Of a DNA stretch of 64,000 nt, positions 12,052-64,000 are shown piece after piece (within the stretch, counting starts at the first letter, position 1; every line of letters starts with the position of its first letter). This stretch comes from Candidatus Latescibacterota bacterium. Its GTDB lineage: Bacteria; Latescibacterota; UBA2968; UBA8231. The stretch lies in the NCBI GenBank assembly GCA_965208105.1, contig OZ242318.1:4000001-4064000 (forward strand), written 5' to 3'. A program made the translations under genes and the position numbers. Below the pieces are notes generated by a model. It saw nothing but the letters and a program-made list of their open reading frames with translations, did not search any database and was not told the DNA's origin.

Positions 12052-12245
12052 GGCGCTTTTTGTATTCAAAATGGCGTTGTATGTTCGTTCTGAATGCGGT
12101 AAAATATCAAATAGGCCCATACTCGACACGCGTTCATCGCTCGCCTGTAAATAGACCGAAAGAGGTCGTGATCCGAGAAGCCTGGCCAGATCCCACCAAC
12201 CTCCCGTTCCCCAGCTCGACGATCTTGGGAAAGGAGTAACCATTG

Positions 12246-14036
12246 ATGCCAAACAAGATTTCCGACGCTTATCGACGGATCCAGCGCATGATTGCGGAAG
12301 AGGAGTGTGTAATCCTGGATGGCGGCGGTACCACGGAGTTGGAGCGCGTCGGGCTGAAGGACTATCGCATCAGCGATAAGGGGATGTGGGGAACCTGGAC
12401 CCTCTATCACGCCCCGTACGCAGCTCTCGAGGTTCATCGCCGCTACGTCGCCACCGGCTGTCATCTCATCTCGACCATGACCTGGTCGATTATCACTCCG
12501 CCGGAGAATGAAGCACGCCAAATGGTGGCGGATACAGCCCCTGGACACTGGATGGATGTGGCGCGGCTGGGCTTGAGGCTCCCTCGACAGGCGATTGACG
12601 AAAGTGGGAGAGCGGGGCAGTGTGCCGTGGCGTTCAGCATCAATGGCGACATAAATACGCCGCAACAACTGGATCGAATGCAGTTGCTCGCACGGGTGTT
12701 TGAAGAAACGCCTCCCGACCTGATCATTATGGAGACCATGTCGCTCATCCGCGATGAGCTGACCTTTCCGGCTGTGGAAATTGTGCTGCGGACAGGGGTT
12801 CCGGTCTGGCTCAGTTTTCGGCGTTGCCGCCATGGCGTTTGCGGCGTCTACGGCCAGCACTGGGGTGGACCGGAAGGCGACTTTTTCGGGCGGATGGCGA
12901 GCAAATTCGAAGAAATGGGCGTCGGCGCCCTGCTCATCAACTGCCTGCCGATAGACCATGTGCCGGGGATGGTCGCGTGGCTGCGCGATTTTACCGATAT
13001 GCCGCTCGGTGTCTATCCGAATCTGGGGCGTTATCTCGACCCCGGATGGCAGTTTGACGACCAGATCGACCCGCAAGGGTACGCAAGGCTTGCCGGCCAG
13101 TGGCGGGAAGAAGGGGCACAGATCATTGGTGGCTGTTGCGGCGTCACACCGGAACATATCGCCGCTGTGCGAGAGAAAATGGCGGGAACGAAGCCCGGTC
13201 GGAGGCATGGACGCACTGCTCCCCACATGGAAGCTGCGGTGAAGACTGAGACCCGTTCAGATCGAACATCGCACGCACTCCAGCCCTGGGTTGATGGGCA
13301 GGAGCGGATGCTGTACCCCTTGCCCTTTCCCGAAATCGTCTGTGATCCCGAGGTTTTTCGCCCGACGCAAGGCAGTTTCCTCGTCTGGAAGCATCTATTT
13401 CGATCCGGTGCGGGCAAAGGGAAACGATGTCTGGATGTGGGTTGCGGAACGGGGCTCTTAACGGTTCAACTGGCGTTGAATGGGGCTGAACGCGTTAAGG
13501 CGATCGACATCCAACGCGAAGCTGTGGCCAATACGATGACGAATAGTTTTCGGAACGGGGTTTCGGATCAGGTCAGTGGGGAGGCGGTTGATCTCTATAC
13601 CTATCTACCGCATGAGAAATACGACCTGGTAGTCGCAAGCCTGCATCAGATGCCGGTCGACCCGATGGGAGAGACAACCAGCCATCGTCCCGCAGATTTC
13701 TGGGGGCGAAACATGCTCGACCATCTGATTTCCCTCTTGCCCGATCTGCTCGAAGAGGGTGGAACTGCCTACCTGATGCAGATTTCCGCCCTGAGTCGGC
13801 TTCGCACAGCCGAGCTGCTGGAAGCGGCTGGATTCGACGGCACCGTGATTGATTTCAGCTTTTTTCAATTCAGTCCGGTGTTTTACCAGAATATTGGGCA
13901 AATCCGGCGCGTCGAAGAACTGTCGGACGCATACCATTTGGCTTTCGGTGACGACCAGGTAATGGTGATCTACCTGCTTGAAGTCGCGCATCGGAAATCG
14001 TCTGCAGAATTGGGCGATGTTCCAGGTAAAACTTGA
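12246..14036 (+). CDS. Homocysteine S-methyltransferase domain fused to a class I SAM-dependent methyltransferase
   Basis: N-terminal ILDGGGTTELE, LINC, GVYPN, IIGGCCG (Zn ligands). C-terminal CLDVGCGTG, AIDI, YDLVVA. AAGGAG RBS. Confidence 0.88.
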   Translation: MPNKISDAYRRIQRMIAEEECVILDGGGTTELERVGLKDYRISDKGMWGTWTLYHAPYAALEVHRRYVATGCHLISTMTWSIITPPENEARQMVADTAPGHWMDVARLGLRLPRQAIDESGRAGQCAVAFSINGDINTPQQLDRMQLLARVFEETPPDLIIMETMSLIRDELTFPAVEIVLRTGVPVWLSFRRCRHGVCGVYGQHWGGPEGDFFGRMASKFEEMGVGALLINCLPIDHVPGMVAWLRDFTDMPLGVYPNLGRYLDPGWQFDDQIDPQGYARLAGQWREEGAQIIGGCCGVTPEHIAAVREKMAGTKPGRRHGRTAPHMEAAVKTETRSDRTSHALQPWVDGQERMLYPLPFPEIVCDPEVFRPTQGSFLVWKHLFRSGAGKGKRCLDVGCGTGLLTVQLALNGAERVKAIDIQREAVANTMTNSFRNGVSDQVSGEAVDLYTYLPHEKYDLVVASLHQMPVDPMGETTSHRPADFWGRNMLDHLISLLPDLLEEGGTAYLMQISALSRLRTAELLEAAGFDGTVIDFSFFQFSPVFYQNIGQIRRVEELSDAYHLAFGDDQVMVIYLLEVAHRKSSAELGDVPGKT

Positions 14037-52474: not shown

Positions 52475-53872
52475 ATGGGAAGAACCCTATTGCAGAAGGT
52501 CTGGGAGGCGCATACCGTGCGCCAGTTGCCCTCGGGGCAGACCCAGTTGTTCGTCGGCCTCCATCTGGTTCACGAGGTGACCAGTCCCCAGGCCTTTGAA
52601 ATGCTGCGGGATCGCGGCCTCACCGTGCGCTTTCCCGAGCGGACCTTCGCTACGGTGGATCACATCGTGCCCACAGACCTTACCCGCCGGCCATTTGACG
52701 ACGACCTGGCCGAGGAGATGATGGACGCGATAGAGAAAAACGCGGCCGAGTTCGAGGTCCCGCTCTTCAACGTCGGAGACCAGCGTCAGGGGGTGGTTCA
52801 CGTTATCGGTCCGGAGCTGGGACTGACACAGCCGGGGATGACCATTGCCTGCGGCGACAGCCACACTTCGACGCACGGAGCCTTCGGCGCGGTTGCATTC
52901 GGGATCGGCACCAGCCAGGTCCGCGACGTGCTCGCCACCCAGTGTCTGGCCATGGATCCCCTCAAGGTGCGGCGGATCGAGATCGGCGGCAACTTGAGCG
53001 CGGGGGTCTACGCCAAGGACGTCATCCTGCACATTATCGGGCGCCTGGGGGTGAAGGGGGGCGTGGGCTACGGCTACGAGTACGGCGGCCGGGTCATCGA
53101 GGCCCTGACCATGGAGGAGCGGATGACCGTGTGCAACATGTCCATCGAGGGCGGTGCCCGGGTCGGCTACGTGAATCCGGACCGGACGACCTTCGAATAC
53201 CTCAGGGGGCGTCCCCACTCGCCGAGGGAGTTCGAGGAGGCGGTAGCCTGGTGGAAAGGCATGGCCTCGGACCTGGACGCCGAGTACGACGACGTGGTGC
53301 GCCTGAAAGGGGAGGACATAGGCCCTACCGTCACCTGGGGGATCACCCCGGGCCAGTCGGTTGGCGTCGACCATGCCCTTCCCTCCCTCTCGGCCTTTAC
53401 CGAAGCCGATCGCTCCGGCGTCGAGGAGGCCCTGTCCTATATGGATTTCGAGCCCGGCCAGAAGATCGCCGGAACCAGGGTGGACGTCGCGTTCATCGGC
53501 TCGTGTACCAACGGCCGGCTCTCCGACCTGCGCGAGGCAGCCAGGGTCGTCCGAGGGCGCAAGGTCGCTCCCTGGGTCAGGGCTCTCGTGGTGCCCGGCT
53601 CACAGCAGGTACGGGCGGCCGCAGAGGCCGAAGGTCTGCACGAGCTCTTCTCGGAGGCGGGGTTCCAGTGGCGGGACGCCGGATGCTCGATGTGCCTGGC
53701 GATGAACCCAGACAAACTGCAGGGCCGCGAGCTCTGCGCCTCGTCGTCCAACCGCAACTTCAAGGGCCGCCAGGGCAGTCCAACCGGCCGCACCCTGCTG
53801 ATGAGTCCGGCGATGGTCGCCGCCGCGGCGGTGACCGGCGAGGTGGCGGACGTGCGCGAGCTGGTGGAGTAG
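52475..53872 (+). CDS. leuC: 3-isopropylmalate dehydratase large subunit
   Basis: [49 protein letters not shown]. Confidence 0.98.
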
Positions 53873-53954
53873 AGGGCGGTCGCCTGGCTTCGTTCGCAGC
53901 GGGCCGTCAGGAAAGCGCCGGTCAGCAAGACCAGACAACGGCCAGTGAATAGCA

Positions 53955-54989
53955 ATGCACCACGTCGATGAATTGCCTGCCTTTCCCGAGGGGTGGTATT
54001 TCGTAGCCACCCGGGAGAACATCCTCCGAGAGAAACTGATCGGGAAGAGATGGCTGGGTGAGGAAATCGTCGCCTGGTGCGACGAGGCGGGCCGCGTCTG
54101 CGTGGCGGACGCGGTATGTCCGCACCTGGGCTCCTACCTGGGGCCGGAGGTGGGCGGCCAGGTATGCGAGGGTCGCCTGGTCTGTCCGTTCCACGGGTTC
54201 GAGTTCGATACGACCGGCCAATGCGTCGCGACTCCGAATGCACCGGCGCCCAGAGCCGCTAAACTGAAGGTATACGAGACCAGGGTTATCCTGGGCCTGG
54301 TCTTCGCCTGGTTCGGGAGCGGAGGCCGGCCCCCACATTGGGAGCTTCCAGGCGCCCCGCCCACCGGCGAGGAGTGGGGCGGGATGGGATACCGGACCCT
54401 GCGGTTCCGCGGCCATCCCCAGGAAACAGCAGAGAATTCGGTGGACCTGGGACACCTGCGCTACGTACACGGCTACGACAATGTGAACCCGGTGGGCTCG
54501 GTAACGGTGGAAGGTGCCTACCTGAGGAGTTGCTTCGACTTCAAACGCGTTCGCAGGATCCTGGGTGTAAAGGACCTCGTGTACGAAATTTCGGCCGTGA
54601 CCCACGTCCATGGACTGGGCTACTCTTTCGTCGAAATCCACGAGAAGACCATCGGTATGAATGCCAGGCTGTGGGTGCTTCCCACACCGGTTGACGGCAC
54701 CCTCCTCGACTTTGTCCTGGTAAGCCAGATGCGGGAAATCCCCAGGCCCCGCAGGTTCATCACGGGTCTGGGGTTCGTTCCCGGGAAGCTGCGCCAGAAA
54801 TTGATGAATCACATTATGCTTTCACAGCAAAAGCGGGATGTGCTGCAGGATGTGGTGATCTGGGAACGGAAGCGGTATCGGACTCCCCCCCGGCTGTGTG
54901 CGGCCGACGGCCCCATAGGGAAGTACCGCCGCTATTGCCGGCAGTTCTATTCCGAACGCTCCGAAGACCCGCCGGAGGCAGCCGACTAG
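53955..54989 (+). CDS. Rieske non-heme iron oxygenase, Neverland/DAF-36 (sterol 7-desaturase) or KshA-like
   Basis: FPEGWY, CPHLG...CPFHG Rieske ligands, ENSVDLGHLRYVH Fe motif, QDVVIWERKRY, DGPIGKYRRYCRQFY. Confidence 0.85.
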   Translation: MHHVDELPAFPEGWYFVATRENILREKLIGKRWLGEEIVAWCDEAGRVCVADAVCPHLGSYLGPEVGGQVCEGRLVCPFHGFEFDTTGQCVATPNAPAPRAAKLKVYETRVILGLVFAWFGSGGRPPHWELPGAPPTGEEWGGMGYRTLRFRGHPQETAENSVDLGHLRYVHGYDNVNPVGSVTVEGAYLRSCFDFKRVRRILGVKDLVYEISAVTHVHGLGYSFVEIHEKTIGMNARLWVLPTPVDGTLLDFVLVSQMREIPRPRRFITGLGFVPGKLRQKLMNHIMLSQQKRDVLQDVVIWERKRYRTPPRLCAADGPIGKYRRYCRQFYSERSEDPPEAAD

Positions 54990-55081
54990 GCCGCAGACGG
55001 GAAGGCCGGGAGGAAAGCCGCGGCAAATCGCCATTATCGGCGGGGGCGTATCAGGGCTTGGGCCGCGTGAGCCCCGAACCA

Positions 55082-56125
55082 TCACCCGGCCTGAAGAGGC
55101 TTACGAGCCAGGAAACAGTACAGCGGCGTAAAGATACCCGCCTTGCCACCCGCGATATAAGCCTCCGCGGTCCGGTCCAGGAGTCGGACGACTTCCGCGG
55201 AGCCCTTCGGAAAGAGCCGCAGTACTTCAGCCAGCTTCAATCCTGCGATGACCGCTTTACGGCCCCACGGAAGCCTGTGCAAGGCGTTCCCAACCGTCCC
55301 ATGGCGACTCTCCATGGGTTGATACCAAGGTGTGGAGGGTCCTTCCTGGATGTCCCGGTCCATCCCTTCCATGACTTGGAATCCCGCGGCTTCGAGCGCG
55401 TGATTCACTTCCCCGAAGGTGGCGATTTCCTTCAGCGCAATGCCGTGCATGAGATCCTCCTCGATGGCCCGGTGCCGGTCGTCCTTCGGATCGAACTTGC
55501 CCGTCAGACACATTTCCTGCCCCCAGAACAGGGCACCGGGTTTCAGCACGCGGAATATCTCCTCGAAGGCGCGTTGCTTGTCCGGCGCATGGCACGTTGA
55601 CTCTATGGCATAACCCCCATCGAAAGTGTCGTCCTCGATGGCGCTCATGTCCATGAAGCTGCACCTCTCGAAATCGACCATGTGATCAAGCCCCGCCTCG
55701 GCGTTCAACCTTTTCGCCTCTTCCAACTGGATCTCATTGATGTTGATTCCCACGACCCTGACACCGGCCTCACGGACGACGCGGCGCATGGGGGCTCCGA
55801 CTCCACAACCAACGTCGACCACCGTCATACCCTGTTGCAGCTCCAACTTGGAAATCATCACCCGCTGATGCCGGACCTTGGACTCCTCCAGACTCTCATG
55901 AGGCGTGAGGGGCGCGAAGTGCAGGGACTGGCCCCAGCCCCACACCATGAACTTGCTGCAAAGGTCGTAATAGTCTTTCACTGTTTCCGAGTGATCGTAC
56001 CCGCCCGCGCCACCGGGCTCCAGCGCCGCCCGGTCGAGCCAGCCGTCGAAGTGCTGCACTCGACGTGCAACGCCCGATGCCCGGTACGCATCTCTCAGCT
56101 CTCTCGACAGTTTGCCCAGCCGCAT
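55082..56125 (-). CDS. Sterol C-24 methyltransferase-like (ERG6/SMT) protein
   Basis: YYD..WGWGQSLHFAP (region I), VDVGCGVGAPMR, YAIESTCHAP, RVLKPG, C-terminal GGKAGIFTPLYCFLARKP (Sterol_MT_C-like). Confidence 0.88.
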   Translation of the reverse strand: MRLGKLSRELRDAYRASGVARRVQHFDGWLDRAALEPGGAGGYDHSETVKDYYDLCSKFMVWGWGQSLHFAPLTPHESLEESKVRHQRVMISKLELQQGMTVVDVGCGVGAPMRRVVREAGVRVVGININEIQLEEAKRLNAEAGLDHMVDFERCSFMDMSAIEDDTFDGGYAIESTCHAPDKQRAFEEIFRVLKPGALFWGQEMCLTGKFDPKDDRHRAIEEDLMHGIALKEIATFGEVNHALEAAGFQVMEGMDRDIQEGPSTPWYQPMESRHGTVGNALHRLPWGRKAVIAGLKLAEVLRLFPKGSAEVVRLLDRTAEAYIAGGKAGIFTPLYCFLARKPLQAG

Positions 56126-56165
56126 TTCGTGGTGTTTCCCCCTGGCTCCACGGGGAGCCAAGTCG

Positions 56166-58199
56166 TCAGGCGGACAGCTCCCGCCGCTGCTCGGTGATGC
56201 GGAACTTCAGCTTCTTGCTCGGTTTCAGCGACGGAAACGGACTGAAACGGAGCTTGTGCTTGTACTTCGCCGGCGACACCTCAATCGTGAAGTAGTGCGC
56301 CAGCATCAGCAAGTTGGCCGCCAGGTGCAGCTCCATCCACCGGGTGCCGAGGCACTTGTGCGTGCCCAGCCCGTACGGGGCGTACCCGGGGTTGCGATGC
56401 TCATGGCGCGGCGGCAGGTAGCGGTCGATGTCGAACTTGTAGGGGTCGGGAAAGACCTCGCTCATGTAATGCGTTGCGGTCATGGCGATGTGGATCCGTT
56501 CCCCCATGGGCAGCTCGCAATTCTCGACCACGCAGGTATTCATCACGTTCCGAATGGAAAGGGAGACGATCGGGTACAGGCGCATGCACTCCATGAGGAA
56601 GCGGTGCGTCACGTCGATGTTGGCGGGGGTGAAGTCCTCTCTCTCGGGGTCGCCCTTGGCGAACAGGGCATCTGCTTCGGCCTGGATCCTGGCGTAGAGG
56701 TCGGGCTGCGACGCCATGGCGTAGATTACGAGGCTGAACATATCGCCGAGGTACACGCTGGCAATCAAGGCCGCGGAGAAGGCGAAGCGCAGGTTGGACT
56801 CCGGGAGAAACTGCGGGTCGCTCGCGTGCAGGCTGAGGTAATCGTCCACCAGGTCCCGCGGGCTGTCCGCCCGTTGGGCGGGGGTATGGACGCCCTGGAC
56901 CCGCTGCATCAGCGTGTCCAGGGCTTTCGCCCGGCGTCTCATGCCCGGGGTGTTCAGCGTGAATCTGGGCAGGAGCCTGGCCACGTGCACGCTGAGGGCC
57001 CGCAATTTGTAGGCCATCAGGTCGTCCATGAGGTCCTGGGTATCGACGCCGATGAACAGTGGCGAGAGCTGGGCGTTCACCATCGCCCTGCACATGGACG
57101 TGGCGCGGTAGGAGTCCCCGACCGTCAGGCTCGCAAGGTACTCGCGCCCCAGATTGTAGAGCTGGTCCAGCTGCCCTCCCAGCCTCCCGCCGGAATAGGC
57201 CGGCGACAGGGACTTGCGAAGCCGGAAGTGATCGGCGCCGTCCAGGGCGGGCAGGACGCCGGAGGCGCCGTAGACCTTCTCGAAGTCGCTGAAATAGTCC
57301 CTGGCTCTCAGGTACATGCGCCCGCGCTTGTGCACCCAGCGGTTCGCTTCGGGTCCGGCCAGGAAAACCATGGGTTTGGAGAAAGGAGGGCGGATCTGGA
57401 ACACCGGGCCGTACTCCTCCGCAAGGTTCCCGAAGAGCGCGTTCAGGTTGCCGTCTCGAACATGCGGGTTCAGCAGCAGCCTGGACAGCGAAACCGTCGG
57501 AATCTTCCTGGCAAGGGCAGGGCGTTGAAGGGCCGGGCCGGCGAGGTTCTGAGAGACCGCAGCGGCCAGGGAGCGGCCGATCAGGTCCATCCTGCAGATG
57601 AACTCGATGCGCTCCTCCGCCTCGTCGTCGAGCTGGAATATGAAACGGAATACGTCGCAGGTATTGACGAGGCAGATGATGATGACATCTCTCGGATCGG
57701 GAATCTCGTCGGTGAAGATGACCCTGCTGATACGGGTCCTTATGAACTGGCCCTCAGTGCCCTCCTCCGACGTTCCGGACAGTTCCCCATGCCGGACGGC
57801 AGGAGCCAGTGTCCAGAATTCGCCGTCGTGGTATTCCAGGATGTTCAGGCCAACCAGGCGGTCCAGAACCGAATCGATGATCGACTCCGCACGGGGAGCG
57901 AGCCGTTCGATCCAGTACTGGGCGTTGTGTTGCCTTGGTGCGTCCGCGATTTCCTTGAGGATGGGGTCCAGGGCGGGGTTGCCGGTTTCTGTCGCGTCCA
58001 CGAGGAACAGGGACTCCATGTCCGTGTCGATGCGGGATCTGAGCGAAAGCTCCGCGAGCACGGCGCCGGCCACGGCGCAGTTCAGGTGCCAGCCGGGTAC
58101 CTGGTGAAAGTAGCCGGTCTCCTCGTTGAGGAGCATCAGGATGAGTTCTTGAGTCAAAGTCAGCGGTTGGGTCGTCAAATCCTCGGTAGTATCAGCCAT
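56166..58199 (-). CDS. GPP34/GOLPH3-like domain fused to cytochrome P450
   Basis: N-terminal LTLTQELILMLLNEETG..AGAVLAELSLRSRI..TGNPALDPIL. C-terminal ECMRLYP (ExxR), FDIDRY, PYGLGTHKCLG heme motif. GGAGG RBS. Confidence 0.88.
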   Translation of the reverse strand: MADTTEDLTTQPLTLTQELILMLLNEETGYFHQVPGWHLNCAVAGAVLAELSLRSRIDTDMESLFLVDATETGNPALDPILKEIADAPRQHNAQYWIERLAPRAESIIDSVLDRLVGLNILEYHDGEFWTLAPAVRHGELSGTSEEGTEGQFIRTRISRVIFTDEIPDPRDVIIICLVNTCDVFRFIFQLDDEAEERIEFICRMDLIGRSLAAAVSQNLAGPALQRPALARKIPTVSLSRLLLNPHVRDGNLNALFGNLAEEYGPVFQIRPPFSKPMVFLAGPEANRWVHKRGRMYLRARDYFSDFEKVYGASGVLPALDGADHFRLRKSLSPAYSGGRLGGQLDQLYNLGREYLASLTVGDSYRATSMCRAMVNAQLSPLFIGVDTQDLMDDLMAYKLRALSVHVARLLPRFTLNTPGMRRRAKALDTLMQRVQGVHTPAQRADSPRDLVDDYLSLHASDPQFLPESNLRFAFSAALIASVYLGDMFSLVIYAMASQPDLYARIQAEADALFAKGDPEREDFTPANIDVTHRFLMECMRLYPIVSLSIRNVMNTCVVENCELPMGERIHIAMTATHYMSEVFPDPYKFDIDRYLPPRHEHRNPGYAPYGLGTHKCLGTRWMELHLAANLLMLAHYFTIEVSPAKYKHKLRFSPFPSLKPSKKLKFRITEQRRELSA

Positions 58200-58230
58200 C
58201 GGTTTCTGCCTCCCTGCATCATGAAGTGCA

Positions 58231-61200
58231 TTACGCGGTACCGGCGCCGGAACGGCGCCGCGAAGCAATCAGACGCAGATGGATGGTGTAAAGCGCGGGA
58301 ACGACCATCATAAGTATAGCCGTGGTAATGAGAATGCCGCAACCGAGCGAGGCGGCGAAGGGGATCAGGAACTGGGCCTGGATGGCGCGTTCCAGAATAA
58401 GGGGCGTGAAGCCGAGGAACGTGGTCAGGGAAGTGAGCATGATCGGACGAAAGCGCCCCTTGGCGCCCTCCACGATCGCCTTCCTTGCCGAGGCGCCTTC
58501 CCCGATTTTCTGATCGATGAAATCGATCATGACCAGGGAATCGTTCACGACCACCCCACTCAGGCCGAAGATACCCATGAAGGATACGGCACTCAGGGCT
58601 ACTCCCAGGACCCAGTGACCCAGGATCACTCCGATGAACCCGAAGGGGATGACGGCCATGATGATGAACGGCTTGGTATAGGATCGGAGGGGGATGGCCA
58701 GAAGGGCAAAGATCATGATCAGGGCAATCGCGAACCCGCGGTACAGCGCATCCAGGGATTCGAGCTGCTGCTGTTGTTCCCCTCCGAAGCTGTATGTCAG
58801 GTCCGGGTGCAGGGCGGTCAGATCCGCGAGGATCGAATTGGCCAGGATGTCGTTGGCTGCGTCGCCTGAAATCACCGAAGCATCCACGTCCGCAGTGACC
58901 GTGACGACGCGCTGGCCGTCCTTGCGTCGAATGGCCGGCGGCGACACTCCCGGGTTCAGGGAGGCCACACTCATGACCGGGACCTCGGCCCCGCCCGGCG
59001 TGCGGACCAGATAGCTTTCGACATCGGTGATCGAATCCCGCTCGTCTTCGGGCAGGCGCACGTAGACCCGGACCTCTTCCCGGCCGCGCTGCACCCGAAC
59101 GGCCTCTGCGCCGAAGAACGCCGCCCGCGCCTGCCCCGCCAGCTCCTCGAGCGTCAGGCCGAGGGTTCGCGCTTCCGGCCGCAGCTCCAGTTGCACCTCC
59201 GGGATGCCCGGGGCGTGGTCCGAACGTATGTCGTAGACGCCTCCCACCCCGCGGAGTCCATCGACCACGGAGTCTGCAATCCGGGCAAGGCGCTCCGGGT
59301 CCGGATGCGACAACACGGCCTCCACCGGGTTGCCCAGGTCGAAGACCTCGCCGCTGAATGTGATGCCGCGTACGTAGGGCAGCACGCCCACTTCCTCCCG
59401 CCATGCCTGCACGACCTCTCCGGTGGAGATTTCTCTCTGTTGGGCGCCCAGAAGTTTGAACTCGATGGTGGCGATGTTGGCTTGCGGATTGAGGGTCGGC
59501 TCCGGATTGAGCCCGCCCTCGAGTCTCGATCCCTGTCCGACGGTCACCGTTACGCCGGTCAGCAGCGGTGGCGCGTCCCCGGGCCGGCCGCGCGAGAGTC
59601 GTTCGATGACCCGGTGGCCTGCGGCCTCCAGTTCCTGCGCCACCTCGTACGTCCTCGGAGCGGTCGCCCCGTCGGGCATCTCCAGGACGACCGTCGCGAT
59701 ATCCCCCTCCACGTCAGCGGCCAGCGTGGTAGGAACGATCCCCGCGGGCAACAGGGAGATGCTCAGCACGAGCATTCCCACGGCCGCCGCCATGGTCACC
59801 CCGGGCTGGTCGGTGGCGAACCGCAGGGCGCGGTCCAGAGGCCCTTGCACGAACCTGTTCAGCAGCGCGTCAACGCGCCCCTGGAGCCGCGCGAAGAACC
59901 GGTCGAAGGCATTGGCCGGCACCCACTCCGGGCCGTGCAGGTGGGAAAGGTGGTTGGGCAGCACCAGCAGCGATTCGACCAGGGAAACCAGCAGCATGGC
60001 GATCATGATGATCGGCAGGGCCCGCCATACGTCACCGACGCCACCCGGGATGAACAGCAACGGGACGAAGGCCACTACCGACGTGAGGACTGCGAACGTC
60101 AACGGCACCTTGATCCGCCGCACGCCGCGGATCGCGGCCGTGACCCCTGGTGTTCCCCGCTTGCGTTCGTATCGAATGTGCTCGGCCACGACGATGGCGT
60201 CGTCGACGACGATCCCTATGGCGAGGACGAAGGAGAACAGGCTGATGGTGTTGATCGCCACGTCGAATGCCATCATGATGGCGAGGGCGCCGATACCCGA
60301 AACGGCGAGGCCCACGGCGACCCAGAGCGCGAGTCTTATTTCAAGGAACAGGCTGAGTGCGATCAGCACCAGCAACAGGCCCAGGATCCCGTTCTTGAGG
60401 AGAAGATCGGCGCGTTCCTCATAGACCTGGGATTCGTCGTTCCACATGGTGACGCCCACGCCGTCCGGCAGGGCCGGGATCACCTCCTCCGCCAGGTGCT
60501 CGCGGACGGTGGTGGCCACGTCCATCACCTGCTCGCCTTCGGCCCGGTAGACCTCGACGAAGACGGCGGGATGGTTCTGATGCCGGACGATCAGGTCGGC
60601 TTCCTGGAAACCGTCGCGGACCTCGGCGATATCTCCAAGGCGCAGGACCGTGCCGTCACGGCCGCTGAGAAGGACGATCTCCTCGAAGTCCTGCTGGTCG
60701 TAGTTCTGGCCGAGGGTGCGGACCCTCACCTGGGATTCCCGGGTATCGATGCTGCCAGCGGACAGTTCCAGGGAACTCCGGCGAATCGTGTGGGCGATGT
60801 CGGTGAGCGTGAGTCCGAGGGCTCTCAGCCGGTGCAGGGGAACCTCGATGGAGATCTCGTATCTCCGGACACCGCTGACCTCGACCTGGGAGACGGAGGG
60901 AAGCGTGGTGAGGTCGTCCTCGATCTGGTAGGCCAGTTCCTTCAGCGCGCGCTCGGAGACGTCGCCGTAAACGATGAGCCGCATCATGCTCTGGCGGTTG
61001 GTCATCTCCCGGAACCGCGGACGTTCGGCGCCGGCCGGGAAGAACTGTATGCGATTGACAGCAGATTCGATATCATCCAGCGCCCGTGCCATGTCCGTAT
61101 CGAAATCCATTTGAACCCGCACGGAGGCCATGCCCGGGGCTGCTACGGACTTGACAGCCTTCACGTCATCCAGCCCGCTGACCTGGTCCTCGATCTTGAC

Positions 61201-61425
61201 GACGATCGACTCCTCGATCTCCTCCGGTGTGGCGCCGGGATAGGCCATCGAGACTTCGATATGGTAGAAAGGGGTGGTGGGCCAGGCTTCCCGCTCGATA
61301 CTGGTCAGCGACACCAGCCCTGCGGCGATGATGGCCCACATCAGCAGATTGGCGGCTACGCCATTCCCTGCCATGTAGGCGATGGGGCCGGCTGGTTCGC
61401 TGTGATTGCCGTTGTCTGTACTCAT
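58231..61425 (-). CDS. RND-family efflux permease (AcrB/AcrD/AcrF-like)
   Basis: YPGATPEEIEESIV, GIVVDDAIVVAE, GVVVNDSLV, RFRPIMLTSLTT. Confidence 0.95.
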   Translation of the reverse strand: MSTDNGNHSEPAGPIAYMAGNGVAANLLMWAIIAAGLVSLTSIEREAWPTTPFYHIEVSMAYPGATPEEIEESIVVKIEDQVSGLDDVKAVKSVAAPGMASVRVQMDFDTDMARALDDIESAVNRIQFFPAGAERPRFREMTNRQSMMRLIVYGDVSERALKELAYQIEDDLTTLPSVSQVEVSGVRRYEISIEVPLHRLRALGLTLTDIAHTIRRSSLELSAGSIDTRESQVRVRTLGQNYDQQDFEEIVLLSGRDGTVLRLGDIAEVRDGFQEADLIVRHQNHPAVFVEVYRAEGEQVMDVATTVREHLAEEVIPALPDGVGVTMWNDESQVYEERADLLLKNGILGLLLVLIALSLFLEIRLALWVAVGLAVSGIGALAIMMAFDVAINTISLFSFVLAIGIVVDDAIVVAEHIRYERKRGTPGVTAAIRGVRRIKVPLTFAVLTSVVAFVPLLFIPGGVGDVWRALPIIMIAMLLVSLVESLLVLPNHLSHLHGPEWVPANAFDRFFARLQGRVDALLNRFVQGPLDRALRFATDQPGVTMAAAVGMLVLSISLLPAGIVPTTLAADVEGDIATVVLEMPDGATAPRTYEVAQELEAAGHRVIERLSRGRPGDAPPLLTGVTVTVGQGSRLEGGLNPEPTLNPQANIATIEFKLLGAQQREISTGEVVQAWREEVGVLPYVRGITFSGEVFDLGNPVEAVLSHPDPERLARIADSVVDGLRGVGGVYDIRSDHAPGIPEVQLELRPEARTLGLTLEELAGQARAAFFGAEAVRVQRGREEVRVYVRLPEDERDSITDVESYLVRTPGGAEVPVMSVASLNPGVSPPAIRRKDGQRVVTVTADVDASVISGDAANDILANSILADLTALHPDLTYSFGGEQQQQLESLDALYRGFAIALIMIFALLAIPLRSYTKPFIIMAVIPFGFIGVILGHWVLGVALSAVSFMGIFGLSGVVVNDSLVMIDFIDQKIGEGASARKAIVEGAKGRFRPIMLTSLTTFLGFTPLILERAIQAQFLIPFAASLGCGILITTAILMMVVPALYTIHLRLIASRRRSGAGTA

Positions 61426-62636
61426 GGTGTGGAGTCGATTTCTGTCTGGACCCGCATGCCTTCGGTGGCAAACAGGATCCCACCGGTGATCACCGCCCCG
61501 CCGCTTTCGAGATTACCGGTCACGATTACCCGATCGTCGGCGCGCTGCAGCACCCGTACCGGAACGATACTCACCGCCCCGGCTTCATCCACCAGCCATA
61601 CCACGTTCCCCGGGCGCAATGCTGCTCGAGGCACCTTGAAGTAGCTGTCCAGTGCAACGCCTTCGATCTCCACCTCCACGAAGGCGCCCACCAGCAACGG
61701 CGGGATGCCGCCGGAGCCACCGGAACGGGCCGCCGGGCCGCTAGCGGAAAACGGGTTCGGAACGCGCACGATCACGTCGATGGTGCGGGTTTGCTGGTCG
61801 AGGGATGCCTCGGCCCGGTCGACGTAGCCATCCCGGGCATGACTCCCGCCGCCGTATCGGGTGACCACCCGGGCTGCCACGCGCCGGTCCCCATCGCCGG
61901 GCTTGAGTTCCCAAAGCCCCGGGATCAGGTCGGCGTCGGCATCGGACAAGGGCACGACCACTTCGACGGCATCCGCGGCGAAAAGTTTCCCGACCGGCTG
62001 GCCGGAGGTGACGATTCGTCCCACTTCGGCGGATTCTTCGCGCACGAAGCCGGCGAAGGGGACGGTTACCCTGGTTCTGTGAAGGGCGAGATTGGCCTCG
62101 GCGAGGCGGGCTTCTTCGCGCTTCAGCGCGGCACGGGCGGCCTTTAACTGGGGCTCCCTCAGCGTGAGGGGACTGGCTGGTGGCGGAGAATCCCCACCCT
62201 CATGCCGCTGGGAGTAGAGCTCGTACTGATCGCGGGCGATGGCCGCTCGTTCCTCCTCTTCGAGCAGGGCCACACGTCGTGCGGCGAGATTGGCCTCGGC
62301 CTCCATCACCCGGTAGCGATAGTCCGCCTCTTCGATGCGAAAAACCGCCTGGCCCGCCTCCACCCGGCCGCCGCTCTGGAATCCCGGATCCACCCAGACG
62401 ATTTTGCCGCCCACTTGCGGTGCGACATCGATCTCGGCGCCTGGCCTTACGGTTCCGGCCCCGGATACGGGTATGGGGCCGGAACCGGCGCTGACCAGAC
62501 CGGTCTGCGCGAACGGCGTTTGGGGCGGCGGATCGGTGCGGGCCGGCTCGGGGGCCAGCGAGACCAGAAAAGCCGCCAGGGCCGCGGAGACCACGATAAT
62601 GGCGCCGGCTAAAATAAAGCTGAGAATGCGGGACAT
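61422..62636 (-). CDS. RND periplasmic adaptor (MFP) subunit
   Basis: N-terminal TM, VAPQVGGKIV, VPFAGFV lipoyl motifs, LDQQTRT, VPRAAL. Stop overlaps the permease start. Confidence 0.93.
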   Translation of the reverse strand: MSRILSFILAGAIIVVSAALAAFLVSLAPEPARTDPPPQTPFAQTGLVSAGSGPIPVSGAGTVRPGAEIDVAPQVGGKIVWVDPGFQSGGRVEAGQAVFRIEEADYRYRVMEAEANLAARRVALLEEEERAAIARDQYELYSQRHEGGDSPPPASPLTLREPQLKAARAALKREEARLAEANLALHRTRVTVPFAGFVREESAEVGRIVTSGQPVGKLFAADAVEVVVPLSDADADLIPGLWELKPGDGDRRVAARVVTRYGGGSHARDGYVDRAEASLDQQTRTIDVIVRVPNPFSASGPAARSGGSGGIPPLLVGAFVEVEIEGVALDSYFKVPRAALRPGNVVWLVDEAGAVSIVPVRVLQRADDRVIVTGNLESGGAVITGGILFATEGMRVQTEIDSTP

Positions 62637-62642
62637 GGCGAT

Positions 62643-64000
62643 TTACTCCGTGGAGGTCGGAAGAAACTGGGTGGGGGCGGCGTTGTCCTGCCGGACGGAC
62701 CTTCTGTCGTGGGCCGTCCACGAGCCTCCCAGGGCCCGGTGCAGTGCAAGGCGGGCGAAACCCAGGTCGCGGTTTGCCGCCGCCTGCACCGATTGCGCGA
62801 TCAGGAAGGATTGCGAGGCTTCGAGGAAAGCCTCGTAATCCCCCACTCCCGCAGCATAGCGAAGCTCCTGAAGGTCGGATTCAGCTTTGGCTTCCCGCGC
62901 GATTGAAGCCAGCAGGGAATGACGGCGCCGGCTGGCCTCCAGTCCTGTGAGAGCGGTCTCAACCTCGTTGACCGCGGTCACCACCGAACGTCCGAAGGCC
63001 GCCGCCGTTTCGTTCAGCCTGGCTTCTGCGAGTGCCACGTTGCCGCGCAGCCGCCCACCCTGGAATACCGGCCCGAGCAGGTTCATGCTGAGGTTTCGGA
63101 ACCACTGATCCGGGTCGAACCACTCGCCCGAGTCGGTGCTCTGGAGGCCAATGGAACCTTGCAGGGACAATCTTGGGAGCAGATCCGCGCGGCGGGCGCC
63201 AACGGTGAATCTGGCAGCTGTCACCCGCTGCCATGCCGCGCCGACGTCGGGCCGCTGCACCAGGAGATCGGCCGGGATACCAGTGGGGACAGGCTGGAGA
63301 ACGGAAGATGCAGCCAGGGAACTGGGAAGCGAATCTGCGATGTGTTGGCGGTGACCTCCCATAAGCACCCAGAGCCGCCCTTCGGCATCCGCCCGCAGAG
63401 ATTCGACCTGCGGCAGCCTGGCCTGGGCGTCGCGCAGGCCCCGGCGCGCCAGACGCAGACCGCGCGCATCGATGAGCCCGCGATCGTAGCGAGATTCGGC
63501 CAGCGACTCCAGCTGTTGAAAGATCTCCACGATTTTCTCTGCGAGTCTCTGTTGATGGCGCAGGCTTACGATCTCCAGGTAAGTCCGCACGGTTTCGGCC
63601 ATCACCCCCATTCGGGCATTCAGGTAGTCCCACTCCGAGGCCAGCCGTGCCGCTCCAGCCGCGGCGGCGTCGTTGCGATTGCGGCCCCAGAAGTCGAGTT
63701 CGTAGGCGAATTCCACGTCGGCGTTGTAGGCAGTCAGGCCGAGCCGGTCGGGAAGAACGATGCCGGATGCGCTTTCGGAGTCCGAACCCAACCCCAATTC
63801 GTCCAGTTGCGCTCCGATTCCTGCATTCGTTGGCGCATTGAAGTCGTTGACGCCGACAGTCGACTGAATCGACGGAAACGCCGGAGCTTTGGCGATGCGT
63901 TCCCTCGCCCTGGCCTGATTGACCCGGGCGACCGCCTCGTCCAGGTCGAAGTTCGAAAATATCACCTCCTCGATTACCTGGTCGAGGACTGGGTCGGCGA
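62643..64000 (-). CDS. TolC/NodT-family outer membrane efflux factor (5' end beyond the window)
   Basis: NFDL..AVARV, YELDFWGR, PADLLVQRPDV, LHRALGGSW. Confidence 0.93.
   Translation of the reverse strand, partial: ADPVLDQVIEEVIFSNFDLDEAVARVNQARARERIAKAPAFPSIQSTVGVNDFNAPTNAGIGAQLDELGLGSDSESASGIVLPDRLGLTAYNADVEFAYELDFWGRNRNDAAAAGAARLASEWDYLNARMGVMAETVRTYLEIVSLRHQQRLAEKIVEIFQQLESLAESRYDRGLIDARGLRLARRGLRDAQARLPQVESLRADAEGRLWVLMGGHRQHIADSLPSSLAASSVLQPVPTGIPADLLVQRPDVGAAWQRVTAARFTVGARRADLLPRLSLQGSIGLQSTDSGEWFDPDQWFRNLSMNLLGPVFQGGRLRGNVALAEARLNETAAAFGRSVVTAVNEVETALTGLEASRRRHSLLASIAREAKAESDLQELRYAAGVGDYEAFLEASQSFLIAQSVQAAANRDLGFARLALHRALGGSWTAHDRRSVRQDNAAPTQFLPTSTE

Follow-up and report, generated by a model that had tools for sequence, protein, structure and literature searches.

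Several parts of the system described here have been reported singly from bacterial symbionts of sponges. The sterol methyltransferases (SMTs) of such symbionts (Brown et al. 2023, PMC10070321; Brown & Welander 2025, preprint 10.64898/2025.12.19.695621) share a fold family, and according to the text of these papers the active ones keep a canonical Region I. Steroid clusters uniting ERG24, CYP51 and OSC with SdmA/B and an SMT are known from symbionts of Ircinia and Melophlus (Kelly et al. 2022, PMC9531527; msb locus, PMC7074536). A fusion of a GPP34 domain to a cytochrome P450, GPP34_L, was reported as exclusive to sponge symbionts and expressed in Aplysina, and was proposed to be an effector that binds phosphatidylinositol 4-phosphate (PI4P) and modulates phagocytosis (Ferreira et al. 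2025, PMC11706023); the main text of that paper nowhere uses the terms sterol, methyltransferase or efflux. Here, we analysed a window of 64,000 nucleotides, meaning the whole stretch from position 4,000,001 to 4,064,000 of contig OZ242318.1 (assembly GCA_965208105.1) of a Candidatus Latescibacterota bacterium, the right-hand end of which carries genes for a Rieske oxygenase, an SMT homologue, a GPP34-P450 fusion and a tripartite RND efflux system. Judging from gene content and conserved residues, we consider it rather probable that these genes belong to a horizontally shared module with which symbionts of sponges (and corals) would remodel and transport external sterols by non-standard methylation.

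As far as the published texts describe them, the steroid clusters and this module have habitat, phyla and horizontal spread in common, and in some genomes they adjoin; the module differs in having no cyclase, Rieske and P450 proteins of other clades, a non-canonical SMT and a transporter, and it mostly occurs without the de novo clusters. In the text of the Brown et al. papers the variant SMT appears as one homologue among many; its clade, and the Rieske, P450 and pump that accompany it, are not described there. GPP34_L shows the same domain fusion, interpreted as an effector in that paper and found in a putative lipid operon, as a predicted enzyme, here. No paper on the whole module was found in the open-access literature, its parts being treated separately in the accessible text of PMC10070321, PMC11706023, PMC9531527 and PMC7074536. 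The statement of an earlier note on this DNA that no characterised locus has this composition thus stands for the module as one unit, and has to be narrowed for the GPP34-P450 fusion and one SMT orthologue, both of which are in print.

Gene neighbourhoods were compared at 80 loci, the best 80 of 551 stretches in the genome collection that encode a relative of the methyltransferase (72–93% identity); neighbours were counted up to 10 kb on each side of the methyltransferase gene, with some P450 paralogues of 42–46% identity included. GPP34 was present at 76 loci, the P450 domain at 75, the Rieske oxygenase at 69, the RND transporter at 49, the periplasmic adaptor (MFP) at 22 and the outer-membrane factor (OMF) at 14, in many orders and orientations. 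The co-occurrence of GPP34-P450, SMT, Rieske and RND genes, for which the earlier note had proposed a neighbourhood search, was thereby confirmed across sponge-type bacteria. The record titles of the 80 loci carry 11 phylum labels. The closest methyltransferase relatives come from records labelled Latescibacterota or Gemmatimonadota, and in a quick tree the Acidobacteriota SMTs were nested among those of Gemmatimonadota (SH-aLRT 99; labels from submitters), consistent with horizontal transfer of these sequences. Nucleotide similarity to the 80 loci (blastn) was confined to a 10.2-kb island (Table 1) and was nil over the flanking ilvC-leuA-leuC genes.

Sponge metagenomes contain module DNA, and this, together with the records of the closest SMT relatives, makes it very probable that the host of the module is a sponge symbiont. 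A metagenome search anchored on the Rieske gene found one or more partner genes in 27 of 33 close loci and none in 47 distant ones (28 of these 47 under 8 kb); the partners at the 33 close loci were P450 (14), SMT (9), flavoenzyme (10), RND (7) and MMPL (12). In a set of 61 genomes, comprising the genome of this study (G000, 93.9% complete) and 60 relatives, many of them incomplete, the methyltransferase was present in 8, the Rieske oxygenase in 13, the P450 in 7 and the RND transporter in 8, with all four in 6. Contigs of relatives cover genes in three metatranscriptome libraries (shares 0.06–0.10), a result that cannot show transcription and is not used as evidence here.

The earlier note had identified the methyltransferase as a sterol C-24 methyltransferase, a label that has to be withdrawn: METHYLTRANSFERASE, the window methyltransferase, is by its residues not a standard C-24 enzyme. 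Its methyltransferase domain (PF08241) and Sterol_MT_C (PF08498) both score above cut-off. Of the 25 residues held by all functional SMTs according to Brown & Welander 2025, mapped here through offsets from the motifs in that preprint, it keeps 22, the departures being T78S, F89L and G132A. L89 and M81 are invariant in the 82 module SMTs, as are F89, T78 and E82 in the 19 canonical SMTs encoded by the same genomes. Across the module clade F89 and Y81 are lost throughout and D79 and E82 nearly throughout, and the sterol-binding Region I is rebuilt; the catalytic C-methylation residues known from the literature (H90, D125 and E195) are all kept and the site for S-adenosylmethionine (SAM) is intact. 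The module SMTs formed a separate clade (SH-aLRT 100; branch length 1.02 changes per site) in a quick tree built without an outgroup and without eukaryotic SMTs. The window methyltransferase is 35–44% identical to canonical SMTs. The signature of propylating SMTs that yield 24-isopropyl sterols (Gly249 with Phe81 or Phe83) is absent, the residues being Ile249, Met81 and Trp83, and a search of solved structures with the methyltransferase returned generic natural-product methyltransferases only.

Published assays bear on this clade through locus L042, whose orthologue is 80% identical to the window SMT and departs from 4 of the 25 functional-SMT residues; its canonical neighbour keeps 25 of 25. 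The gene order at L042 fits the gene numbers 9278 to 9270 of 'Nitrospira sp., coral reef' in Brown et al. (PMC10070321), and by deduction its variant SMT would be the tested 'Nitrospira 2 of 2' (IMG 2682229270). Because it departs from four residues held by all functional SMTs, we deduce from the text of that paper that this orthologue was inactive on desmosterol and 24-methylenecholesterol; the canonical neighbour, 'Nitrospira 1 of 2', makes (epi)codisterol, a Delta25 sterol (PMC10070321). The accessible supplements of the paper yielded no protein motifs or activity table. Since the SAM-binding and catalytic residues are intact, a different substrate appears likelier than decay. Older feeding studies reportedly identified Delta25 sterols as precursors of C-26-extended sponge sterols, and we tentatively raise the possibility, in itself unlikely, that the variant SMT is the C-26 side-chain-extending methyltransferase behind aplysterol-type sterols and that, along with an unconventional P450, a flavin isomerase or desaturase, a reductase and a transporter, it turns sterols of the host or the community into 26-methyl sterols that are handed back. 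The module occurs on contigs assigned to Aplysina aerophoba (aplysterol) and Petrosia ficiformis (petrosterol) (L147, L171 and L141; hosts assigned by contig prefixes from Brown et al., PMC10070321). It also occurs on Sarcotragus contigs (L159 and L168) and in a coral-reef genome, and host chemistry therefore does not decide the C-26 question. No C-26 methylating enzyme turned up in the literature searched.

The whole of G000 contains no match to a cyclase (PF13243) or a squalene epoxidase (PF08491), which extends to the genome what the earlier note had said of the window; it also has no second intact P450 and has one squalene/phytoene synthase. Among 50 carrier genomes, which represent 50 of the 80 loci, are of unstated completeness and were picked for long contigs and spread, a cyclase of any kind was found in 15, and an open reading frame (ORF) of the size of an epoxidase-cyclase fusion in 7, with none in 43. 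Because no cyclase or epoxidase was found in G000 and only a minority of carriers show one, the substrate is likely to be external. Probing G000 for sterol catabolism gave one KshA_C gene, the window Rieske itself, and two GMC oxidoreductases without known specificity. At L041 and L042 the module stands directly after a run of CYP51, ERG24, SdmA, SdmB and canonical SMT genes, the order at L042 being CYP51, ERG24, SdmA, SdmB, canonical SMT, flavoenzyme, outer-membrane protein, Rieske, variant SMT and GPP34-P450. At L039, CYP51, ERG24, an epoxidase-cyclase-sized gene and a canonical SMT lie beside the module.

Two further enzymes accompany the module. An LkcE-like flavin oxidoreductase is present in 34 of the 80 loci and in 40 of the 50 carrier genomes, and is the fifth module member, encoded elsewhere in G000 (at 1,997,984-1,999,369, away from the island, 83% identity); in the set of 61 genomes it occurs in 4, each a Rieske carrier. 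Sequence inspection placed this flavoenzyme directly upstream of another SAM methyltransferase-like ORF (L132:621-2886; G000:C1 ~1,997,100-1,999,370). In L049, L058 and L078 the module has an ERG4/24-like reductase next to it, which in G000 stands alone (C1:965,273-966,412; L094:1498-2637), with orthologues in 25 of the 50 carriers (70–87% identical). It is 35–37% identical to, and distinct from, the ERG24 of the de novo cluster, and is probably the sixth module member, likewise encoded elsewhere in G000. A second isoprenoid-lipid locus in G000 (L221:2399-11029; G000:C1:4,568,398-4,577,028) encodes an MpaB/Lcp-like oxygenase, an MMPL protein with a sterol-sensing domain and a LolA-like protein, and converges on the squalene/phytoene synthase and IspH, in a genome without a detected cyclase.

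The Rieske oxygenase shares with KshA and Neverland/DAF-36 the Rieske and KshA_C architecture and the cluster and iron ligands: the CxH and CxxH cluster ligands and the two His and one Asp iron ligands are intact, and the motifs are kept across aligned orthologues. Its nearest solved structures are KshA (E 2e-22); the alignment is partial and of low identity, and no KshB or steroid-degradation genes recur beside it. Hydropathy revealed no membrane anchor in the protein. The nearest atlas clusters include some named 'cholesterol 7-desaturase', which are automatic names of bacterial clusters. The label Neverland-like given in the earlier note is accordingly retained at the level of the Rieske/KshA_C group and its ligands; a placement with Neverland rather than KshA is not. 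An assignment as the 4-beta-methylsterol oxidase SdmA was rejected (NF052579, 29 bits against a cut-off of 600), and the SdmA-like gene of L042 is 25% identical to the window Rieske over 187 aa.

The GPP34-P450 fusion has the heme cysteine motif, the ExxR motif and the fold that it shares with CYP51 and CYP120-like bacterial P450s, to which it adds an N-terminal GPP34 domain and a shortened I-helix. In the alignment, the whole module P450 clade shows a one-residue deletion in the I-helix and has no acid-threonine pair there; this motif is kept in 69 of 106 aligned relatives, each at most 36% identical to the window P450. The module P450 was placed among bacterial relatives with an AGLDT I-helix, a motif that it has lost. 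An AlphaFold model of the P450 domain (106 sequences) reached a pLDDT of 97; a full-length model from 37 close homologues reached 54 and was not used. Foldseek gave a TM of ~0.8 to many P450s, with bacterial CYP51, P450 BM3 and CYP184A1 matching alike at 14–21% identity, one of the CYP184A1 entries being oleate-bound. CYP51 came first in both the sequence and the fold searches; an assignment as CYP51 or as a conventional monooxygenase was rejected at 20–22% identity and with no acid-threonine pair in the I-helix. An atlas search with the P450 domain returned generic bacterial P450 clusters only, 10 distant relatives were named merely 'cytochrome P450' or, automatically, 'P450 120', and the C-22 desaturases CYP61/CYP710 were not among the best matches of the P450 searches, which leaves a C-22 desaturase role unsupported. 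The claim of three independent sterol-type enzymes was too strong: the P450 (21% identity, CYP51 level with BM3) could not be assigned to a sterol family, nor could the Rieske be placed with Neverland in preference to KshA. Because the I-helix is shortened and the acid-threonine pair is gone, conventional hydroxylation by the module P450 is doubtful; we infer substrate-assisted oxidation, desaturation or isomerisation as candidate reactions, and the shortened I-helix may amount to new chemistry.

No N-terminal hydrophobic or signal segment was found in the GPP34-P450 protein. The arginine of the 'LRG' motif of GOLPH3/Vps74, which presumably binds PI4P, aligns with an alanine of the GPP34 domain, although the alignment is weak (E 0.02). 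The operon context, the missing signal segment and the missing arginine argue for a predicted enzyme rather than a secreted effector. Among GPP34-P450-sized proteins (P0127-P0268) there are many clusters at <50% identity, the distant ones mostly with a normal I-helix; P0196 has two GPP34 matches, and P0254 and P0257 are P450s fused to cNMP-binding domains. G000 further carries a stand-alone short GPP34 gene (G000:C1:3,350,811-3,351,467), 37% identical to the fused domain and surrounded by regulatory genes of anti-sigma type, with a paralogue of the SUP permease (discussed below) close by, and a short P450 C-terminal remnant broken by stops (G000:C1:2,117,356-2,117,559).

The RND, MFP and OMF genes are adjacent and co-oriented in this genome, and all three occur in 14 of the 80 related loci; full-length RND copies are 69–94% identical across related loci. 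Two MMPL-type families are found in 10 and 9 loci (19 in total) with no overlap with the loci of the AcrB-type pump, and one or the other type of transporter is present in 68 of 80. The dedicated tripartite pump of the earlier note thus exists here, and is no conserved core, since of the 80 loci 22 have the MFP and 14 the OMF, and MMPL proteins take its place in 19. With BstA, HpnN and MmpL transporters and AcrAB-TolC pumps it shares the RND superfamily, the window pump being of the AcrB family and both MMPL representatives tested carrying a sterol-sensing domain. The window RND falls far short of the curated cut-offs for named families, HpnN among them, and the MMPL partners fall far short of that for BstA. 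Many Gemmatimonadota and Acidobacteriota loci, among them L032, L047, L057, L058, L059, L079, L080 and L084, retain the RND gene with neither an MFP nor an OMF gene next to it. L034, L036, L037, L053, L056 and L090 are arranged differently and combine a GPP34-P450 of 42–46% identity (70% in L053) with an MMPL protein, a TPR protein and an outer-membrane beta-barrel.

In the window itself (Table 1), a check of ORFs and Pfam domains showed six intact ORFs in the order and on the strands reported earlier, and five closely set minus-strand genes do converge on the Rieske gene. The gaps are 6 nt between OMF and MFP, -4 nt between MFP and RND, 31 nt between RND and P450 and 40 nt between P450 and methyltransferase, and 92 nt separate the convergent methyltransferase and Rieske genes. 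The likely start codons are ATG 56125 for the methyltransferase and ATG 58199 for the P450, the latter giving the same 677-aa protein as the database protein P0001. A promoter and terminator scan of window positions 53,500-56,300 gave signals at chance level only. To the left of the island lie ilvC, leuA and leuC; to the right, beyond the window, follow a binding protein, an acyltransferase, a permease, a hydrolase, a phosphopantetheinyl transferase (PPTase), an acyl carrier protein (ACP) and a 3,400-aa polyketide synthase (PKS). Elsewhere in the window, positions 12243-14036 (+) encode a homocysteine S-methyltransferase domain fused to a class I methyltransferase domain.

Table 1. Module genes and island in the window (positions are those of the window)
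Feature	Position	Strand	Supporting match
Rieske non-heme iron oxygenase, KshA/Neverland-like, 344 aa	53955..54989	+	PF00355 + PF19298 (KshA_C)
Non-canonical sterol-methyltransferase homologue, 347 aa	55082..56125 (ORF open to 56161)	-	Methyltransf_11 (PF08241) + Sterol_MT_C PF08498, E 6.6e-16
GPP34-cytochrome P450 fusion, 677 aa	56166..58199 (ORF to 58268)	-	PF05719 + PF00067
AcrB-family RND transporter, 1064 aa	58231..61425	-	ACR_tran PF00873, E 4e-161
Periplasmic adaptor (MFP, HlyD-type), 404 aa	61422..62636	-	TIGR01730 above cut-off
Outer-membrane efflux lipoprotein (OMF, NodT/TolC type)	62643..64000, start ~64,187 beyond window	-	OEP; TIGR01845 above cut-off
Island common to other sponge-type bacteria	53,965 to ~64,180 (10.2 kb)		blastn coverage edges + flanking genes

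The right-hand PKS cluster, which from its gene order we take to be SUP, spans G000:C1:4,067,744-4,081,846 (from L001:7744), 3–17 kb beyond the island, with the acyltransferase and binding protein genes in between. Its PKS gene, supA, belongs to a type described as a widespread sponge-specific PKS (PMC4245539). A supB-like gene is present in 29 of the 50 carriers, in 26 of which it is far from the module or on another contig; in 3 of the 50 it lies within 45 kb of the methyltransferase, with SUP 13–18 kb from the OMF gene. An obligate link between module and SUP was rejected on this count. At the same site after leuC in a genome of the same genus, G001 (L133:3100-16500), the MFP, RND, P450 and methyltransferase genes are gone and a broken Rieske gene directly adjoins a frameshifted OMF gene; supA is cut to ~1.6 kb and the permease is frameshifted. 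With 12% contamination in G001 the frameshifts could be assembly errors, an explanation that fits the deletions less easily. The pump and the enzymes were lost together in G001, and the module is dispensable.

The earlier note had suggested that the locus modifies exogenous sterols and re-exports them. We retain the sterol reading with corrected enzyme labels, and the sequence of events might be as follows. A sterol from the host, the host's food or sterol-making neighbour symbionts would enter the inner membrane, where the Rieske oxygenase would oxidise or desaturate its ring system and the P450 and the LkcE-like flavoenzyme would introduce or shift a double bond in the side chain, or add oxygen. 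Next, the variant methyltransferase would place the SAM methyl group on a non-Delta24 substrate, most plausibly a Delta25 terminal alkene (C-26 extension), and the ERG4/24-like reductase may saturate the product. The RND, MFP and TolC-type proteins, or the MMPL protein in other carriers, would carry the product to the outer membrane or export it from the cell, with the GPP34 domain serving as a putative membrane- or partner-docking module of a cytoplasmic P450.

A number of observations weigh against this proposal. No enzyme of the module has shown a substrate or product, and the neighbouring genes that the loci share included no recognisable recurring reductase or ferredoxin to serve the two oxygenases. 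The composition is loose, the methyltransferase being near only 9 of the 33 close Rieske loci, and G046 and G057 have the Rieske, the RND and a P450 of 52–53% identity without the methyltransferase. In 30 of the 50 carriers the variant is the sole SMT-like gene, which leaves no second SMT to make a Delta25 substrate, and the flavoenzyme was not found in 10 of the 50. The nearest solved relatives of the flavoenzyme are LkcE and a 'putative aminooxidase', which we take to be a fatty-acid isomerase, and they fit non-sterol lipids too, as does the P450 fold, which is as near to the fatty-acid P450 BM3 as to CYP51. The inactivity of the L042 orthologue is a deduction from the text of Brown et al., and an inactive assay could also reflect poor expression.

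In a different account, the module would modify and export a lipid other than a sterol, for example a fatty acid, a SUP PKS product, an ether lipid or another terpenoid, with the SMT fold repurposed. Its main support is the joint decay of module and SUP in G001, combined with the position of the SUP cluster near the island in G000 and, in three of 50 further carriers, near the OMF gene and no more than 45 kb from the methyltransferase. The LkcE-like flavoenzyme and the rank of P450 BM3 and CYP184A1 beside CYP51 agree with it, and the rebuilt Region I could signal a non-sterol substrate. We nevertheless regard it as unlikely: supB-like genes occur in only 29 of the 50 carriers and are distant in 26 of these, in Nitrospira-type loci genes of the sterol pathway stand next to the module, which has also recruited sterol-sensing MMPL and ERG4/24-like genes, and its Rieske resembles steroid oxygenases. 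Detoxification, whereby steroidal or terpenoid defence compounds of the host would be oxidised, methylated (possibly on oxygen) and pumped out, would suit the AcrB-type pump with TolC, the close homologues from sponge-type records, and a patchy distribution (all four core genes in 6 of 61 genomes) with loss in the sister genome. The very high conservation across phyla (72–93% identity), the retained C-methylation residues H90, D125 and E195, the replacement of the pump by MMPL lipid transporters in 19 loci and the link to biosynthetic sterol clusters speak against it and make it quite improbable.

A conventional route is a still less promising candidate, and we hold it to be very unlikely: a C-7 desaturase acting with a standard C-24 methylase and with either an ordinary sterol hydroxylase or a C-22 desaturase would give ergosterol-like products. 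The Sterol_MT_C match with 22 of 25 key residues, the auto-named 'cholesterol 7-desaturase' clusters near the Rieske and the top rank of CYP51 in sequence and fold searches are what one would expect of such a route, but F89 and Y81 are lost clade-wide and D79 and E82 nearly so, the 80% identical orthologue is deduced, from published text, to be inactive, and the P450 has lost the AGLDT I-helix motif of its relatives. Finally, the GPP34-P450 could be the secreted PI4P-binding effector blocking phagocytosis of Ferreira et al. 2025, with incidental neighbours; the GPP34 domain is real, and the text of PMC11706023 reports the fusion only from sponge symbionts and expressed in Aplysina. Its gene, however, is separated from the RND gene by 31 nt and from the SMT gene by 40 nt and travels with its partners in 76 of 80 loci, and the protein lacks an N-terminal hydrophobic segment and, in the weak alignment (E 0.02), has alanine in place of the LRG arginine. 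RND pumps are not known to export proteins, and we judge the effector role extremely improbable. Remodelling of external sterols by non-standard methylation remains the reading we prefer.

Whether sponges or bacteria are the source of the 24-isopropyl and 26-methyl side-chain alkylations of steranes is stated to be unresolved (PMC12541326, in the text available). The module provides a conserved and expressible candidate with a rebuilt sterol pocket and partner enzymes, which makes this question of source testable. A large group of genes annotated as 'SMT/ERG6' should be left out when C-24 methylases are counted in sponge metagenomes, and the GPP34-P450 family gains a biochemical context unlike its published interpretation. 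The module is common among carriers rather than special to this genome. If the C-26 reading is true, the precursors of the 26-methylstigmastane 'sponge' biomarker would be products of the microbiome, made by bacteria from some eleven phyla, and the role of GPP34-P450 would be that of a sterol enzyme, not of an effector.

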